From IMG/VR virus record IMGVR_UViG_3300042486_001111: a stretch of 64,000 nucleotides of DNA; one strand, 5' to 3'. Position 1 is the stretch's first letter, and the number at the start of each line of letters is the position of its first letter. This document shows positions 15,838 through 57,428 of the stretch, piece by piece. Made by a program: the position numbers and the translations under genes. The notes beneath the pieces were generated by a model. It ran no database searches and was not told where the DNA came from. It was given only the letters and a program-made list of their open reading frames with translations. Origin of the DNA: a virus. Its lineage: Duplodnaviria > Heunggongvirae > Uroviricota > Caudoviricetes.

Positions 15838-15982
15838 AAACGAATGATACCCCTTTTGTCCGATCATCCCAACCCTTCTTGTGGGTTTTACTTTACATAT
15901 TATAAGGATTTCATTTTACATATTATAAAAAAACCCCTACAGTAATGTAGAGGTTCAAATATTCTTCATATGTATTTATATC

Positions 15983-20335: not shown

Positions 20336-20386
20336 ATCTAATATTTTATTATAAATATATGTTAAAAAGAAAAAACCCCTATATTC

Positions 20387-21088
20387 CTATATAGGTTTAA
20401 TCATCTCTTTTAATTCCCATTTACCCTTATCGTAGATAATATAACTATTGTTCTCAATCCAATCACCACAATTTAGATAATGTATTCCATCTATGTATTT
20501 ATTTTCTGGTGTATGTATATGTCCACAAATAACTCCCTTACAGTTTCTTTTCTTAGATTGGTACACCAACTGTTCTTCAAAGTTAGTTATGAACTTAACC
20601 GCATCCTTTACTTTCTTTTTTAAGAACTTACTTAATGACTTCTTATAACCAAACTTCTTCATTAACATATCTAAACTTATCGCCAACTCATACCCAAATG
20701 ATCCCAACTTACCCAACCATTTCATTTGTACTATACCATCATATAAATCTCCGTGGGTTATGAAGTAATCTTCCCATATCATCTCATTCACCACAGTAAT
20801 ATTCTCACCAAAGTATAATGGAATATAACTCCTTAAAAAATCATCATGATTGCCAGTGATATAAGTTACCTTAGTTCCCTTTTTTGTATATGATAAAATC
20901 TTACGAATAACATTAGAAAAGGATTGATTCCAATAGTGTCTCTTCTTCAATAACCAACCATCTATAAAATCACCTACTATGATTAATTCTTTAGGTTCAT
21001 ATTTTTTTAACATCTCCAATAGTAATTCGGCATTGGATCCCTTACTACCTAAATGTACATCCGATATAAATAACGCGTCAACTTTCAT
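20387..21088 (-). CDS. calcineurin-like metallophosphoesterase, LpxH-like (UDP-2,3-diacylglucosamine hydrolase family)
   Basis: ISDVHLGSKGSN...IIVGDFIDGW...GNHDD...GHIH motifs. Confidence 0.65.
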   Translation of the reverse strand: MKVDALFISDVHLGSKGSNAELLLEMLKKYEPKELIIVGDFIDGWLLKKRHYWNQSFSNVIRKILSYTKKGTKVTYITGNHDDFLRSYIPLYFGENITVVNEMIWEDYFITHGDLYDGIVQMKWLGKLGSFGYELAISLDMLMKKFGYKKSLSKFLKKKVKDAVKFITNFEEQLVYQSKKRNCKGVICGHIHTPENKYIDGIHYLNCGDWIENNSYIIYDKGKWELKEMIKPI

Positions 21089-21843: not shown

Positions 21844-21873
21844 AAAAAACCCCTATATTTTTATAGGGGTTTT
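21844..21873. terminator. bidirectional intrinsic terminator (cccctata-tttt-tatagggg)
   Basis: Perfect 8-bp hairpin flanked by an A-run and a T-run. Confidence 0.6.
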
Positions 21874-33487: not shown

Positions 33488-33613
33488 TTACTTTGTTTTA
33501 TTAGACTTTAACTCTGTTACATTACTCTTACCATATGCATCACATTCAGTTTTTTTTGTAGACGCGCAAGAACACAATAAAAGTATCCCTACAATGATTA
33601 ACATTTTATTCAT
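33488..33613 (-). CDS. putative small lipoprotein (MNKMLIIVGILLLCSCASTKK..., 41 aa)
   Basis: Not in the track. Signal peptide plus lipobox-like LLLCSC; coordinates +/-1. Confidence 0.3.
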   Translation of the reverse strand: MNKMLIIVGILLLCSCASTKKTECDAYGKSNVTELKSNKTK

Positions 33614-34118
33614 ATATTTTAGTTTTTAATTTGTTTTGTATTCTCTTAGTTGCCTTATGTAAATTAGATTTAGATGTACCTTCACAAATACCCAATTTTT
33701 TTGAGATGTCTTTATGTGACATATTTTCTATGTGATAACATTTAAAAACTAAATTATACATAGGACTCAATTTTTCAATTTCTTCATCAATATCTGTCAA
33801 CATATCTTGTTTACAATCTACCTCATCAATAGTATCAAAGTGTAAATTGTCATCATACTCATAAGTATATTTTTTCTTTCTTAAATGATCTAAGGCACAA
33901 TTTCTAAAAATCTTATATAGATAACCGTTTAAATTTTTTACATCTATTGGTGTATCAATTAATTTAAATATTTTTATAAATCCTTGTTGGACAACTTCAT
34001 CCCTATCAAATTCATCTTTAATATATCTTTTAACAGTATCGTACCCTAAAATTTTATATGATTCATAGAATTTAGATTGGGATAGAGTATTACTGTTAAT
34101 GAGATTTAAATTATCCAT
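33606..34118 (-). CDS. sigma-70 family (ECF-like) RNA polymerase sigma factor
   Basis: Region-2-like FIKIFKLID...YLYKIFRNCALDHLRKKK and region-4 HTH ISKKLGICEGTSKSNLHKATKRIQNKL. Confidence 0.6.
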   Translation of the reverse strand: MDNLNLINSNTLSQSKFYESYKILGYDTVKRYIKDEFDRDEVVQQGFIKIFKLIDTPIDVKNLNGYLYKIFRNCALDHLRKKKYTYEYDDNLHFDTIDEVDCKQDMLTDIDEEIEKLSPMYNLVFKCYHIENMSHKDISKKLGICEGTSKSNLHKATKRIQNKLKTKIYE

Positions 34119-48717: not shown

Positions 48718-49800
48718 TTAATCTGTTCTATAAATATAATAAGTTACCCCATTATAATATTCTTCATTTTCACTACCATCATAACCAGATAAAGTATTAC
48801 CTCTGTCTTCATTTTCTGCGAGATATCTCTCTAAACCAGACTCATCGAATGTACAATAATATTCTACTGCCTCCTTAAAACTTAACCCTAAATTATTTAC
48901 AAAATAATCTACACCATCATTATCAATTTCACTAATTATCTCACTCACCATTGTGTCACGTAACTCTTCTCTCGCAGTGTCAAATAGTTCTCTTAACTCA
49001 TCTCCCAATCCTTCATATGTAGTTTGTTTATCCGAAAGTTCTATTTCTAAGTCATTAATCTCTTCTTTCAATTCTTCATATTCTTCAGTACCAAAAAAAT
49101 CTTCATCGTCATCTAACCTCTCTTCTAATTCACTTTCTTTTTCTTCTAAAAGGTTATTTAACTCATCAATTCTTTCCTCTAATATTACCATCCTTTCTTC
49201 ATACTCTTCTCTACTGTCATATCCTGCCTCTGATATTACATCTTCTTCAGTCATATCATCGAGCCTATAATCTGCAGTTTCTTCTGCGTATTGATCAACA
49301 CTATATTGGTCTAACTCTATAAAGTCATCAACGGTATATCTATCTATATTATCTACCCCACCAACTTCATCAACATACCCATCAAAATAGTCTTCCATCG
49401 CACTACTAACCTCATCGTCATCACCTACCGCATAAACCTCATCTGAAGTTAAATCCCTATAAGTATCTAAACCATGATGACTACCTTCGTGTTCTATTAA
49501 AATCGGTGGTATATCTAAAAACATTGACAAAGCAACTAATTCATTATTATATGAAGAAGTATCGTTCACACCTTCTAAATCTGCATCAGTTAAATTATCG
49601 TAATTACCTAATTCATCATAATGATTAGTATAAAGATGTAATATTTCTATTTTAGTATCTGTATCATCTATCGATAATTCATTAGATAGTATATCCCAAA
49701 CTACGCTGGCATCCTCACCTTCACCCAACTTTTTATTAAGTAACTTTAAAACCCTTTTATAAAAGGGAGTTATTTCATTTTCTAATATTAATCTTCTCAT
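48718..49800 (-). CDS. acidic coiled-coil protein (360 aa)
   Basis: Intact ORF. Confidence 0.5.
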   Translation of the reverse strand: MRRLILENEITPFYKRVLKLLNKKLGEGEDASVVWDILSNELSIDDTDTKIEILHLYTNHYDELGNYDNLTDADLEGVNDTSSYNNELVALSMFLDIPPILIEHEGSHHGLDTYRDLTSDEVYAVGDDDEVSSAMEDYFDGYVDEVGGVDNIDRYTVDDFIELDQYSVDQYAEETADYRLDDMTEEDVISEAGYDSREEYEERMVILEERIDELNNLLEEKESELEERLDDDEDFFGTEEYEELKEEINDLEIELSDKQTTYEGLGDELRELFDTAREELRDTMVSEIISEIDNDGVDYFVNNLGLSFKEAVEYYCTFDESGLERYLAENEDRGNTLSGYDGSENEEYYNGVTYYIYRTD

Positions 49801-50616
49801 CTAATAATCTATTTTAATCATATAATATGTACCATCATTGTCATAACCACCACCATACTTATAAACTTGCCCATAATCACTAAGTTGATCGAAATGAACG
49901 TGTTTTGATTCGTCATCAATAAATTCATCCCAATCGAATTTAAAATAAGGTGGTATTTCATTTATAACAATTCTACCCTTTTCATTAACTTCTATAAACT
50001 CATTTTCTAATAAATATTCGAAAATATCCATTTCTTTAGGTATTATATCTTTATCTTCAACATAAAGGTAACCTATGTAATTTTCTATACCAATACTTTG
50101 TATAATTTCATTTCTATCCCAATAACGATCTTTAAGAAATTCCTTTGTTGCGTCAACCATTTGATGGAAATCCCCAAAACAAAAGAAATTTTCTTCTTCA
50201 TAAACATAATATATAGGCAAACCATAATATAATGAAGATTCTTTACTAATTAAAAATGGTGATGTTCTAAAATATTTAGATAAGATAATAACTTCATCGG
50301 AAAACATAGACTCCAATTCACTTTCACTTATTTTTACTAATGAATCAACATTTTCATAGTTACCTTCAGTATTGTACTCTACTATGAAAGTGTAAAATAT
50401 ATTCATCATATCAGAATATTCTGTCGTTATGAATTCTTTGATGAAATCAAATAATGGTATATATACAGAATCTACCTTTACCATAGACCCATCAAACGGG
50501 TACAATGAATTAGGTTTTTTTTCTAATTTATCTATAAAACGTCTCTGAATTGTATTGAGTACTCTCCTAATTCCGTTTCTATCTAACTCCTCACTTAATA
50601 TTTCACTAAATTTCAT
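49801..50616 (-). CDS. hypothetical protein (271 aa)
   Basis: Intact ORF abutting the downstream gene. Confidence 0.5.
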   Translation of the reverse strand: MKFSEILSEELDRNGIRRVLNTIQRRFIDKLEKKPNSLYPFDGSMVKVDSVYIPLFDFIKEFITTEYSDMMNIFYTFIVEYNTEGNYENVDSLVKISESELESMFSDEVIILSKYFRTSPFLISKESSLYYGLPIYYVYEEENFFCFGDFHQMVDATKEFLKDRYWDRNEIIQSIGIENYIGYLYVEDKDIIPKEMDIFEYLLENEFIEVNEKGRIVINEIPPYFKFDWDEFIDDESKHVHFDQLSDYGQVYKYGGGYDNDGTYYMIKIDY

Positions 50617-50690
50617 TATTAACCTTTACATTTTACTAATAAATATTAATTTTTGAGTAAATAACCATATTTAATAATAAAAATAAATAA

Positions 50691-50879
50691 ATGTTAATAG
50701 TACAAATTAAAAACGGTAACATCGAAAGAGGTTTAAAGGAGTTGAAAGGTAAATTCGTAAAAACCAAAATTGTGAAAGAATGTAAAGACAGAGAGGAATA
50801 TTTAAAAGAATCTGTCAGAAAAAGAGAAGAGAAAATTAAGGCAATATATAATCAGAAAAAAAAAGAACAAAACAATTAA
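50691..50879 (+). CDS. rpsU: ribosomal protein bS21-like
   Basis: MLIVQIKNGNIERGLKELKGKFVKTKIVKECKDREEYLKESVRKREEKIKA follows the S21 pattern (MxxVxVxxxExxxxALxxFKxxxxxxGxxxExRxRxxYxKPS..RK). Very basic, 62 aa. Confidence 0.55.
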   Translation: MLIVQIKNGNIERGLKELKGKFVKTKIVKECKDREEYLKESVRKREEKIKAIYNQKKKEQNN

Positions 50880-50880
50880 C

Positions 50881-51378
50881 ATGAATGAAGAAGTTTTATC
50901 GTTATTAAACGAACAAATATGGTTAGAGAATACGGCATCGTATTTTTACCTAAACCTATCTAAAAAATTTAGTGAAAATCATTATTACGGTATATCTAAA
51001 TTTTTCCTAAATCAATCAAATGAAGAAAGAGAACATATGGTTAAATTGTTTGAGTATGTTTTAGAACAAGAAGGAAATCCAATAGTACCAAATTATAACT
51101 ATATGGATGACGAAGAATTAGAATTTAATATCCTCTATCTTTTTCAGATGTCATTATCCAACGAAAGAAAGGTTACTAATTCAATTAATAAGATTATTAG
51201 TAAATGTAAAGAAGTTGGTGATTACACAACAGAAAACTTCTTACAGTGGTTTGTTACTGAACAAAGAGAAGAAGAAAATAAATTTAAAGAGATTATTGAC
51301 AACTTAAAGATTGTCGGTAACGATAAGGTTGGATTGTATGAGATAAACAAATCATTAAACGTTTCTAAAACAATCTAA
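50881..51378 (+). CDS. ftn: ferritin (non-haem, FtnA-like)
   Basis: LNEQIWLENTASYFYL...EEREHMVKLFEYV...ENFLQWFVTEQREEENKFKEIIDNLKIVGNDKVGLYEINKSL closely parallels bacterial FtnA. Confidence 0.8.
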   Translation: MNEEVLSLLNEQIWLENTASYFYLNLSKKFSENHYYGISKFFLNQSNEEREHMVKLFEYVLEQEGNPIVPNYNYMDDEELEFNILYLFQMSLSNERKVTNSINKIISKCKEVGDYTTENFLQWFVTEQREEENKFKEIIDNLKIVGNDKVGLYEINKSLNVSKTI

Positions 51379-51407
51379 GAAATTTTAACATATATATAGA
51401 TAGTTTC

Positions 51408-51451
51408 AAGGGATTCTACGAATTTAATTTCACCTAAGAATCCCTTTTTTA
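51408..51451 (+). terminator. strong intrinsic terminator (aagggattct ... agaatccctt 10-bp hairpin + T6)
   Basis: Ends the plus-strand rpsU-ftn island. Confidence 0.6.
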
Positions 51452-51629
51452 TTGCTAAAAATTTGTAGATGTCATATATTCGATCAAAATTTGACATAAG
51501 TTCTTCTTCTTTGGTTTTACCAAGATAGAATAGGACACACCCCTTATTTTCCTTTGTTCCCATCTCCCCATATTTTAATAATAAATATCTGGGAGAATGG
51601 GAATATTGTTATATTTTATACATAAATTT

Positions 51630-53696
51630 CTAAGCCCTGTGATCAGGATATTCGTACCCATACCCATCTACCTCATTATCACGTACTTCATTATCAGGAC
51701 CTATATTTGGTAAAAGTGCCTCCAGTTCCATTCTAATATTTCTATTGTGTGGGTAATACTCTTCATTTTGATTATGTGCCCTTCTAAGAAATCCATTGTC
51801 ATCTCGTACCATATGTACTACTGGCACTTGTTCCTGTTCCATTATAGGTTCATCCATTGGTACTGGTTCTTCAAACCCCTCAAATTCATCTATCATCCCC
51901 AAACCAAACGACTGTCTATTTTTTGAGGTGTCTTCATCTTTTACATTAACGAGAATACCTCTATTCAACATATCAATAGTTATGAAATTATTAATCTTAC
52001 TTTCATAAGTTTTTCTCAAATGTATCATATTGACATAGTTTGTAAAAATAGTAGAAATAATTCTGTGATACTCACTACTCACTCTATTACAATATGATAA
52101 TAATTGTACTTCTTTATAAACTGAGTCTTCGACTAACCTTAGTTCTAAACCTGACATATTGTTCGGTGTTATAATTACAAATAGTTTAGTATCACCCTTT
52201 ATAATTTTATCTTTATAATTTTGTCCAGGATTGTTCATACAATTTTTTAGTTTTTTACCCGCCCATTGTAAATCTAACTCAGTACTCAACTCTTTTATTT
52301 TTACACCTTCAGGTAAAGTTAAATCACTAAAATCTAATGGTTCATAAAGGTTGACGCAGAATTTCTCTTTATCTTTCCTAATACCCTCAACAATACTTTC
52401 ATATGTAACTTTATAAAATTTATTAACGGTAGTTAAGTATCCTGATACTAATTCTGAAACCCACTCACCTTCGTTGTTATAAACCCGTTTAATCTCTCTA
52501 CTTAAATTTAATGATTCTTGTAGGTTTAATCTATTCTTTGCGATATATGGTACTACCCATCTATCCTTATCCATAAAAGATTCTAATTCTTTAACGTGTG
52601 AAGAATCGAAATCACAGTTGTAGAAATTATTATCCACCAAAGAGATAACCTTACATAGGTAGTAATCACCCATAACAACTTTCTCCGCCTTAGACTTTAA
52701 CTTTTTATTAGTTTTACCCTTAACTATGTTATATGCGTTCATGAATGTTAAAGGGTTGAAACTGATACCGAATAAAACTTTTCTGATCTCAGGATCTACA
52801 TCAACATATTTTTTGGGTGTAAGTGTCCACATTATATCATTGTTTTTAGCCCAATTACTTAATACCTCTGTTGGTATATTCGCATTTGGGTTCAACCAAT
52901 TTGCCACATGATTAGAGTTATCAACCTGACTAACACCATTTCTTAAATTCCACATACTCTTCTTATGATCGAAGAATTTAGTTAATTTAAAATATTCTCT
53001 TATTTTATTGTAATATGTGAAATACATTTCTTTATACTTTGTACTAAAATATAAACCAAAATGTCTAGGACTTAAATTGATTATGTTTTCCATTAATAAC
53101 GGTTGAGATAACAGATTCATTGACTCCTCAACATTACAATAACATTTAAGTTCATCTAATTTTTTAAACAATCTAATGGCAGTGTGTGCTGGCGTATAAA
53201 TTGCAGTAACCTCTAACTGTTTGTTATTAAGGAAATTCTCAAAAGATTCTGTATAACACATAGTGTTATTATCTAAATCAATCCCAACTTGACAACAATT
53301 AAAATCGAATCCGTTAAGGATATATGAATAACCAACATTTTGTCGAGCCGAATGTATAAATATCGTATTCAAAAACCCTTCTCTTTCCACAGACGCTATT
53401 TGATAGTTACTTCCGTGATCGTAGGATAATTTAGTAACCATATAACCATCACCCTCAATGATTAATTTATTTGATCTCAATGGTGTAGTTACGGTACGGA
53501 ATAACATATTATCAGTATCGTCAATAAAAATATCTAAGTCATTAATAGGGTATTCTCCGTCCCACACATAACCCATTAGTGTATTCGCAACTGCCCCACC
53601 AGATAAAAATCCTTTATTGGGTATCTCACCGTACTTAGATAAATCATTAAGGATTCTATCTACAATGTTTTTTTCTTTTAAGATGTCACTATTCAT
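51630..53696 (-). CDS. large hypothetical protein (688 aa)
   Basis: Intact long ORF. Confidence 0.5.
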   Translation of the reverse strand: MNSDILKEKNIVDRILNDLSKYGEIPNKGFLSGGAVANTLMGYVWDGEYPINDLDIFIDDTDNMLFRTVTTPLRSNKLIIEGDGYMVTKLSYDHGSNYQIASVEREGFLNTIFIHSARQNVGYSYILNGFDFNCCQVGIDLDNNTMCYTESFENFLNNKQLEVTAIYTPAHTAIRLFKKLDELKCYCNVEESMNLLSQPLLMENIINLSPRHFGLYFSTKYKEMYFTYYNKIREYFKLTKFFDHKKSMWNLRNGVSQVDNSNHVANWLNPNANIPTEVLSNWAKNNDIMWTLTPKKYVDVDPEIRKVLFGISFNPLTFMNAYNIVKGKTNKKLKSKAEKVVMGDYYLCKVISLVDNNFYNCDFDSSHVKELESFMDKDRWVVPYIAKNRLNLQESLNLSREIKRVYNNEGEWVSELVSGYLTTVNKFYKVTYESIVEGIRKDKEKFCVNLYEPLDFSDLTLPEGVKIKELSTELDLQWAGKKLKNCMNNPGQNYKDKIIKGDTKLFVIITPNNMSGLELRLVEDSVYKEVQLLSYCNRVSSEYHRIISTIFTNYVNMIHLRKTYESKINNFITIDMLNRGILVNVKDEDTSKNRQSFGLGMIDEFEGFEEPVPMDEPIMEQEQVPVVHMVRDDNGFLRRAHNQNEEYYPHNRNIRMELEALLPNIGPDNEVRDNEVDGYGYEYPDHRA

Positions 53697-57108: not shown

Positions 57109-57134
57109 TAAAAAAACCCACATCAGTGGGTTTT
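57109..57134. terminator. bidirectional intrinsic terminator (cccac-atca-gtggg + T-run)
   Basis: aaaaaaacccacatcagtgggtttt. Confidence 0.55.
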
Positions 57135-57137
57135 ATT

Positions 57138-57428
57138 TTAAAGTACTTCTTTTATTCTATCTGTTAACATTTGTTCATTAAGTACACCACTATTTCTCCA
57201 TATTGGTTTACCTTCTTTAAATAATACTAATGTTGGTATACTTCTTATTTGGTATTTAACTGCCAATTCCCTTTCCTCGTCAACATTAACTTTAACAACC
57301 TCTAAGTTTTCATTTTTACTTTTCACTTGTTCTATCACTGGGTTCATCATTTTACATGGACCACACCAAGCCGCCCAAAAATCAACCAAAACTGGTTTAT
57401 CGGATTTTAAAATTTCATCTAAATTCAT
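57138..57428 (-). CDS. trxA: thioredoxin
   Basis: VLVDFWAAWCGPCKM active site; 96 aa. Confidence 0.85.
   Translation of the reverse strand: MNLDEILKSDKPVLVDFWAAWCGPCKMMNPVIEQVKSKNENLEVVKVNVDEERELAVKYQIRSIPTLVLFKEGKPIWRNSGVLNEQMLTDRIKEVL

Follow-up and report, generated by a model that had tools for sequence, protein, structure and literature searches.

A gene pair for ribosomal protein bS21 and an FtnA-like ferritin in a clade of uncultured aquatic phages

We analysed a stretch of 64,000 nucleotides from the IMG/VR virus record IMGVR_UViG_3300042486_001111 (Caudoviricetes), referred to over its full length as the window, and describe a locus in which a gene for the small-subunit ribosomal protein bS21 is followed directly by a gene for a ferritin. 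bS21 is the commonest virus-encoded ribosomal protein, and the ferritin is the less expected gene of the two. An earlier reading of the letters made without database searches (here the sequence-only reading) had described the pair as plus-strand genes set in a minus-strand region. Both open reading frames (ORFs) lie at the coordinates given there, and the minus strand carries 77 of the 84 window ORFs of at least 80 amino acids, so the pair is a true plus-strand island. The window itself is gene-dense, has about 30% GC and is almost devoid of Shine-Dalgarno sequences. The features at the locus are:

50638..50653, plus strand: conserved promoter-like AT-rich block (AATAAATATTAATTTT), about 40-55 nucleotides upstream of the bS21 ATG
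50691..50879, plus strand: bS21 gene, 62 amino acids, with matches to Pfam, TIGR00030 and phrog_21469
50881..51378, plus strand: ferritin gene, 165 amino acids, with matches to Pfam Ferritin and FtnA and an AlphaFold model
51408..51452, plus strand: hairpin with a 10-base-pair stem, a 19-nucleotide loop and a following T-run, a candidate lineage-specific terminator

The product of the first gene had been read as a very basic protein of 62 residues with the S21 pattern, and profile searches bear this out. It scores 45.2 bits against Pfam PF01165 (Ribosomal_S21; cut-off 27), with residues 4-55 on profile positions 2-54 of 55, and 35.4 bits against the NCBIfam equivalog TIGR00030 (cut-off 28.95), with residues 3-58 on positions 2-58 of 58. 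The interval 50691..50879 thus passes the curated cut-offs of both models, and it also matches phrog_21469, annotated as 'ribosomal protein S21'. The isoelectric point (pI) of 9.86 and the net charge of +9 fit the small basic class of about 55-70 amino acids; the aligned parts of two Bacteroidota bS21 proteins are more basic still (pI about 10.8). Ratios of nonsynonymous to synonymous polymorphism (pN/pS) of 0.06-0.32 show that the gene is under purifying selection.

Judged by its residues, this is a bS21 of the Bacteroidota type. A search of solved structures returned just the chains from F. johnsoniae (7jil_z, 35.4 bits) and P. gingivalis (9i5v_9, 37.2 bits; the source of entry 9I5V was identified via PMC12123416), with the next bS21 at 19 bits, and the phage protein is identical to these two at 28 of 59 and 27 of 55 residues (47-49%). 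According to Jha et al. (2021, PMC7797042), the bS21 proteins of Bacteroidota carry a signature tyrosine, Tyr54 in F. johnsoniae numbering, and their C-terminal part is not as basic as that of bS21 from other phyla. Tyr54 stacks on A1534 of the 16S rRNA at the point where the 3' tail enters a pocket that hides the anti-Shine-Dalgarno sequence (PMC7797042). Tyr53 of the window protein aligns with Tyr54 of 7jil_z and with the tyrosine of 9i5v_9, the signature tyrosine is invariant across nine phage bS21 homologues, and the C-terminus of the window protein reads KKKEQNN. A search of 1.84 billion representative proteins gave just 273 matches at E <= 0.001, the top ones with the Bacteroidota-type sequence pattern. 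A cluster look-up of ten cellular-looking relatives yielded one organism name, that of a Flavobacteriales metagenome-assembled genome (MAG); the best 120 matches of a profile search were all phage-clade proteins and hence carried no taxonomy.

The gene departs from its host counterparts in its leader. In most Bacteroidota orders rpsU has a very strong Shine-Dalgarno sequence, and ribosomes lacking bS21 prefer rpsU, which results in autoregulation; efficient initiation on ordinary mRNAs without a Shine-Dalgarno sequence needs bS21 (PMC9976891). The 25 nucleotides upstream of the phage bS21 ATG (CATATTTAATAATAAAAATAAATAA) contain no G and no Shine-Dalgarno sequence. The phage gene therefore lacks the strong Shine-Dalgarno sequence of Bacteroidota rpsU and should not be regulated like it, as would be expected for a copy that escapes host feedback.

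The second gene encodes a non-haem ferritin. Its product scores 120.1 bits against Pfam PF00210 (cut-off 24.5; residues 8-143 on profile positions 3-140 of 142), and its best match among solved structures is E. coli FtnA (E=2.5e-25). An AlphaFold model built with 31 sequences has a mean predicted local distance difference test score (pLDDT) of 93.2 and places helices at residues 3-32, 36-62, 84-112, 115-145 and 149-158; the first four, all long, form a bundle with a long B-C loop, and the fifth is short. Foldseek aligns this model to bacterial and archaeal ferritins, among them 4ZTT, 1EUM and 3QZ3, with template modelling (TM) scores of 0.89-0.93. Residues E16, Y23, E48, E49, H52, E95, E127, Q128, E130 and E131 align with FtnA E17, Y24, E49, E50, H53, E94, E126, Q127, E129 and E130. 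Among these we take FtnA E17, E50, H53, E94 and E130 to be the di-iron ferroxidase ligands and E49, E126 and E129 to form the third site, with Y24 and Q127 as additional conserved residues. All of the FtnA ferroxidase and site-C ligands are kept, and when 7 and 31 sequences were aligned, each of the ten positions was either invariant or conserved in at least 90% of them, so that the ferroxidase centre appears intact at the level of its residues. The pN/pS of the gene is 0.06-0.09, again indicating purifying selection. The sequence-only reading had called the protein a clear FtnA-type ferritin. Ligands and fold uphold an FtnA-like non-haem ferritin; however, the NCBIfam FtnA equivalog PRK10304 gives 93.3 bits, far under its cut-off of 178, so the protein is better described as FtnA-like than as an FtnA orthologue.

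The identical ferritin protein was found in 110 blocks of a metagenome index. Identities among its relatives run continuously from 92% to 51% and then fall to 37% or less, the level of cellular proteins, and this drop sets the phage ferritins apart as a clade of their own, well separated from cellular ones. The clade appears to have been undescribed so far. Ferritin had been called unusual for a phage, and it is: a tblastn search with the protein found matches in just five of 50,697 sequenced phage records, all at 35% identity or less and mostly to small fragments. The PHROG family that matches the ferritin has no assigned function, and a literature search on 'phage ferritin' phrases returned giant-virus papers only. 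Scanning a genome collection with narrow ferritin patterns recovered five bacterial ferritins, from Salinimicrobium and other Flavobacteriaceae, at 38-40% identity, together with a phage contig in a single-cell assembly. This is suggestive of a Flavobacteriaceae affinity, but the choice of patterns biases the result, and these identities are no better than the roughly 35% to E. coli FtnA.

The two genes are tightly packed. A single nucleotide lies between the bS21 stop codon and the ferritin ATG in the window, and in every relative the gap is 0-4 nucleotides or the genes overlap, with the called ferritin start overlapping the end of bS21 by 35 nucleotides in the marine branch. The related contigs that were fetched share the order bS21, ferritin, a convergent small gene and a gene of about 670-710 amino acids; the relative L030 has the same order without bS21, and L023 has an additional HNH-endonuclease ORF (L023:3776-4300, minus strand) between the small and the large gene. 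In distant relatives identity has fallen to 55-60% for bS21, 51-69% for the ferritin, 47-64% for the small convergent gene and 43-51% for the large neighbour. This synteny spans freshwater and marine contigs of up to 287 kb, among them contigs of 145-287 kb with 28-30% GC. For each of the two genes there are more than 120 clusters at 90% identity, drawn from lake and ocean samples and found on contigs of up to 230-287 kb.

A natural deletion bears on the relation between the two genes. L030 is a near relative of L022 from which bS21 has been cleanly removed: when L030:5880-6030 is compared with L022:5690-6030, the upstream block and roughly the last twelve bases of bS21 run straight into the ATG of a retained ferritin. 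No bS21 was found anywhere within the 9.8 kb of L030 that were examined. The deletion is an argument for the separability of bS21 and ferritin and for an upstream block that serves the operon. A protein of 179 amino acids from a 1.2-kb contig (P0109) joins bS21 residues 1-53 in frame to the ferritin from about residue 42 and so has no helix A; this fusion represents a deletion variant or else an artefact of assembly.

The AT-rich block sits in a divergent spacer of 74 nucleotides (50617-50690), between a minus-strand gene that starts at 50616 and bS21. It is identical or nearly so in close relatives, and the form AAATAT(T)A[AC]TTT is still recognisable where bS21 is just 55-60% identical. We list it as a putative promoter. 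The block fits no promoter consensus convincingly. As a recurrent motif it has two matches in the window against 3.4 expected, a sigma-70 consensus scan of 49.5-52.5 kb found 17 promoter-like sites against 21 expected and so stood at or below chance, and an analysis of k-mer enrichment in intergenic regions brought out the canonical terminators of the genome and no promoter. The window also encodes a sigma-70-family factor with regions 2 and 4 (33606..34118, minus strand), which could serve phage-specific promoters, the one of the island among them.

We conclude that the window is part of an uncultured jumbo phage. Its relatives are IMG/VR viral contigs of 145-198 kb, and the identical gene order occurs on contigs of up to 287,632 bp. 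Most window ORFs have no family match, are short and lie nearly all on one strand. Genes of the large-phage type include a holin family, a sigma-70-like factor, a thymidine kinase, an IMPDH/GMP-reductase-family enzyme, a glycosyltransferase and a metallophosphatase, as well as a PNK/HAD RNA-repair protein, a T4-type RNA ligase, a poly(A)/CCA polymerase, a thioredoxin and an FKBP isomerase. Those with coordinates of interest here, and the tRNA genes, are:

57138..57428, minus strand: thioredoxin, 97.7 bits
57784..58209, minus strand: FKBP/SlyD-like isomerase, 73.9 bits
62755..63426, minus strand: cluster of five tRNA genes (Met-CAT, Arg-TCT, Leu-TAA, Glu-TTC, Asp-GTC)

An Rfam scan found the five tRNAs and no other match. 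The thioredoxin and SlyD genes had been recognised before, and their family scores agree with that assignment; together with the island they may make up the proposed set of genes for taking over host physiology, and the nearby thioredoxin matches a redox theme only loosely. A nucleotide search of 48-54 kb of the window against the 50,697 phage records gave no match. Capsid and terminase families were not detected among six flanking proteins that were scanned or in the precomputed Pfam tables for the remaining window, and the jumbo-phage assignment leans on context for this reason.

The host is probably a member of the Bacteroidota. Shine-Dalgarno cores precede two of the 84 window genes, compared with 12.8% of random in-gene positions, and the leaders are A-rich at -14 to -10, -6 and -3, as described for Bacteroidota-style initiation. 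The nearest bS21 homologues in sequenced phages, and the sole homologues of the large gene at the right-hand end of the module, belong to huge phages of 634-735 kb, for which replication in Bacteroidetes has been predicted (Al-Shayeb et al. 2020). Two database labels point elsewhere. L023 (QCKH01000014.1, 'Prochlorococcus sp. AG-409-L21') is a 32-kb marine contig of 28% GC from a single-cell assembly and carries the module, and a ferritin and a bS21 of the clade (P0032 and P0214) are labelled 'Candidatus Dadabacteria bacterium' in NCBI. We read both labels as phage contigs carried along with cellular bins: L023 may be a phage that was co-sorted with the cell or was infecting it, or it may hint at another host, and the Dadabacteria-labelled pair probably comes from a phage contig that ended up in a MAG bin. 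With these labels, a Bacteroidota host is probable, not certain. The longest contig is 18,061 bp for both P0032 and P0214, which is consistent with a single common contig.

We think it likely that bS21 and the ferritin form a two-gene operon of an uncultured aquatic jumbo phage, most likely with a Bacteroidota host, in which bS21 goes to the host 30S subunit and the ferritin stores iron. The operon would be transcribed counter to its neighbours, from its own conserved upstream block. Phage bS21 would be a paralogue of the host protein, with the retained tyrosine helping to hide the anti-Shine-Dalgarno tail. Replete ribosomes would translate its mRNA as they would any other A-rich phage message of leaderless type and, because no Shine-Dalgarno sequence precedes it, would do so outside the host rpsU feedback loop. 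The protein would then exchange into host 30S subunits, or complete them, so that the anti-Shine-Dalgarno tail stays sequestered and ribosomes are kept in a state that initiates on phage messages free of Shine-Dalgarno sequences. Translation of host rpsU would be lowered as the subpopulation of ribosomes without bS21 vanishes.

The ferritin is probably translationally coupled to bS21. It may form a 24-mer cage that oxidises and stores Fe(II), and in this way could buffer labile iron and limit Fenton damage during infection. The ligand residues and the predicted fold support iron oxidation and storage, the benefit of which could lie in protection from Fenton chemistry, in an iron reserve for phage enzymes or in manipulation of the iron regulation of the host. 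Most likely the functions of bS21 and ferritin are independent but co-timed, because L030 has deleted bS21 yet kept the ferritin. Several observations weigh against the operon as we interpret it: the ferritin falls short of the FtnA equivalog cut-off, the upstream block matches no promoter consensus well, bS21 is dispensable in at least one lineage (that of L030), the window has yielded no capsid or terminase gene, and the Prochlorococcus and Dadabacteria labels are attached to members of the clade.

The closeness of the two genes raises the question of whether they form a functionally coupled unit, for example because bS21-modified ribosomes make a ferritin necessary or because the two proteins interact. 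The adjacency (0-4 nucleotides or overlap) does persist down to about 55% identity in bS21 and about 51% in ferritin, in both freshwater and marine contigs, and ferritin is not a common neighbour of bS21 in 900 published phages (PMC9723584), which makes the pairing specific to the clade of the window. However, L030 lost bS21 cleanly and retained the block and the ferritin, no link between bS21 and iron is known, and adjacency within an operon of a compact phage genome is weak evidence for a shared function, so we regard such coupling as unlikely. A related idea, which we find doubtful, is that a virus-specific ferritin lineage has been tied to bS21 since before the split between freshwater and marine branches, with iron and redox control a co-regulated part of the takeover of Bacteroidota ribosomes; if this were true, that control would not be a chance accessory acquisition. 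It is also improbable, in our view, that phage bS21 stays off the ribosome and either regulates by binding RNA in free form or serves as a decoy disturbing host bS21 autoregulation. The lower pI (9.9, where the aligned parts of the host proteins have about 10.8) and the divergence of the N-terminal helix and C-terminus from bacterial sequences would suit such a role, but the protein is colinear over its full length with Bacteroidota bS21, its relatives keep the rRNA-contacting tyrosine and the KPSV/KR core, purifying selection is strong, and, according to PMC9976891, a pelagiphage bS21 enters E. coli ribosomes. Finally, the window could be cellular DNA or a misassembly with an ordinary host rpsU and ftn, as the Prochlorococcus single-cell assembly and Candidatus Dadabacteria MAG labels on related proteins might suggest. 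We reject this reading as very improbable. The window contains no other ribosomal or housekeeping operons; its ORFs are mostly short, without family match and nearly all on one strand; it carries a holin, a T4 RNA ligase and a tRNA cluster; its relatives are IMG/VR viral contigs, with the module on contigs of 145-287 kb and 28-30% GC; and the ferritins of the clade (at least 51% identity) are separated by a gap from cellular ones (at most 37%).

The end of the plus-strand transcript has to be weighed in the same manner. Two further kinds of feature are needed here:

51375..51563, minus strand: small convergent gene of 62 amino acids, called orf62, whose stop codon overlaps that of the ferritin
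15930-15975, 20372-20410, 21846-21873 and 57113-57134, intergenic: canonical terminators of the form ACCCCTA-loop-TAGGGGTTTTTT, with loops of 4 nucleotides

The sequence-only reading had ended the island with a strong terminator of 10-base-pair stem. The hairpin is real and unusual. It begins 30 nucleotides past the ferritin stop, and on the same strand its arms AAGGGATTCT (51408-51417) and AGAATCCCTT (51437-51446), which form four G-C pairs, are followed by TTTTATT, the stem and T-run of an intrinsic terminator; its centroid energy is -13.1 kcal/mol (z = -2.65). A census of at least nine perfect pairs followed by a T-run found 11 such hairpins in the window against 0.5 expected in random sequence, an enrichment of about 20-fold, and the hairpin at 51408 is the sole member on the plus strand only. 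It is perfectly conserved in the subclade of the window despite nearby synonymous changes. Its role as a terminator is harder to uphold. The hairpin lies wholly within the coding sequence of orf62, with arms that correspond to the codons for KGFL and VESL and a T-run made of conserved Lys codons on the opposite strand, and it is neither intergenic nor short-looped (3-8 nucleotides) as the clear terminators of this genome are. A consensus terminator scan of 49.5-52.5 kb did not call it because its loop exceeds 8 nucleotides. In L009 the stem is eroded, three or four pairs having been lost through synonymous changes, and it is absent in L018-L023, L022 and L030. Among 11 distinct relatives there was no covariation support (66% of cells paired, against 62% in shuffles), and six of the ten pairs depart by unpaired cells only.

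The hairpin might thus be a by-product of codon choice in orf62, with the plus-strand transcript ending elsewhere or otherwise. Its position inside a gene under purifying selection, its 19-nucleotide loop beside the 4-nucleotide loops of the clear intergenic terminators, its loss in deeper relatives with pairing near that of shuffles, and a T-run explained by Lys codons would all fit such an origin, to which we give a substantial chance, short of probable. The enrichment of its class, its standing as the one plus-only case just past the stop of a rare plus-strand operon, and its perfect conservation in the subclade speak against it. A lineage-specific terminator overprinted on coding sequence is plausible, at roughly even odds. 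Of the canonical terminators, those at 21846-21873 and 57113-57134 can be read on both strands. The top sigma-70-like match of the region also falls in the hairpin region (51382-51409, minus strand; TTGAAA-16-TAAAAT with an upstream TG, 10/12). It would yield an RNA antisense to ferritin and bS21; such a match is at chance level in AT-rich DNA, and it is poorly conserved in L009.

Phage-encoded bS21 is already known, and what is new here is its stable pairing with a ferritin in a conserved context. The occurrence of bS21 in Bacteroidetes- and SAR11-infecting and huge phages, and its proposed biasing of translation initiation, were stated correctly in the sequence-only reading (PMC9723584, PMC7162821, PMC9976891). 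Chen et al. (2022; PMC9723584) surveyed 900 published phages that encode bS21, and the freshwater jumbo phages with predicted Bacteroidetes hosts that they described are close to the present case: these are uncultured, of about 290-330 kb and about 31-34% GC, and carry a single short, Bacteroidota-like bS21 with an aromatic residue at Tyr54 on the strand opposite its neighbours, for which substitution into host ribosomes was proposed. In those phages, however, bS21 lies between two hypothetical genes in a structural module (terminase, capsid, protease, portal), whereas in the window it heads a ferritin operon in a non-structural region. Ferritin is not mentioned in that paper and is outside the top 20 bS21 neighbours across the 900 phages.

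The pelagiphage and huge-phage bS21 proteins (Mizuno et al. 2019; Al-Shayeb et al. 2020) share the proposed redirection of translation initiation. The window protein has 45-55% identity to the homologues in the 634-735 kb huge phages and 49% to that of Pelagibacter phage Mosig, lacks the N-terminal extension described for many huge-phage bS21 proteins, and comes from a clade whose ferritin found no tblastn homologue in those bS21-bearing genomes. The mechanism proposed here is the general model of Chen et al. (2022) and Mizuno et al. (2019), made more specific. Compared with the bS21 proteins of F. johnsoniae (7JIL) and P. gingivalis (9I5V), the phage protein agrees in length class, whole-protein colinearity, Tyr54 and weakly basic C-terminus; its first loop is shorter by a residue, the protein as a whole is more acidic, and its gene lacks the very strong Shine-Dalgarno sequence typical of most Bacteroidota rpsU genes (PMC9976891).

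The ferritin resembles E. coli FtnA and the bacterial non-haem ferritins 1EUM, 4ZTT and 3QZ3 in its identity of 33-36%, its four-helix bundle with E helix, its ligands of sites A, B and C together with Tyr24 and Gln127, and its TM scores of 0.89-0.93. It differs from them in belonging to a distinct phage-borne clade (51-92% identity within, at most 37% to cellular proteins); its cage is predicted. Virus-encoded ferritins have been discussed for giant eukaryotic viruses (Moniruzzaman et al. 2020, PMC7136201) and noted, as a single unexamined annotation, for a myxobacterial virus (bioRxiv 10.64898/2026.09.14.751636). They were interpreted as a means to control the iron available to infected cells or the oxidative stress there, a reading that may apply to the present gene as well; in contrast to those cases, the window ferritin is of bacterial type, is conserved across a large phage clade and stands in an operon with bS21.

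These findings extend current views and do not overturn them, and should be useful to specialists rather than surprising. To our knowledge the action of bS21 has never been demonstrated for any Bacteroidota phage. The clade provides a compact and well-conserved example of a phage bS21 that has kept the tyrosine hiding the anti-Shine-Dalgarno tail and dropped the Shine-Dalgarno sequence that serves feedback, a loss that would give a phage a concrete route to override host control of ribosome composition. The natural variant without bS21, L030, is a ready-made comparison. With the ferritin comes a type of phage metabolic gene that has been little studied. It is intact, specific to phages and widespread among metagenomes from lakes and oceans, and so is relevant to the ways in which viruses may influence iron handling by aquatic bacteria.

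The convergent gene orf62 was absent from the sequence-only reading and is called as a gene in every related contig. Its pN/pS values are 0.08 and 0.13, and its identity in distant relatives is 47-64%; searches of the Pfam, NCBIfam and PHROG profiles gave no significant match and a weak winged-helix hint (E = 0.058). Ferritin and orf62 leave no intergenic space between them, and the two transcripts must therefore overlap at their 3' ends. The module is bounded by two larger genes:

51630..53696, minus strand: gene for 688 amino acids, the right-hand boundary of the module, syntenic in all relatives at 43-86% identity
49801..50616, minus strand: gene for an acidic protein of 271 amino acids, the left-hand boundary, divergent from bS21

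Matches to the 688-residue protein in the phage collection are limited to the huge phages LR756502 and LR745206. The flanking minus-strand genes could be linked to the island only by antisense read-through or through a promoter in the 74-nucleotide spacer, and either would give the island its own timing. The products of 48718..49800 and 49801..50616 (minus strand) appear to be tandem paralogues; both are very acidic and share the C-terminal motif ..YY.I...D/DY. The relatives likewise hold at least two copies of the gene for this acidic protein.

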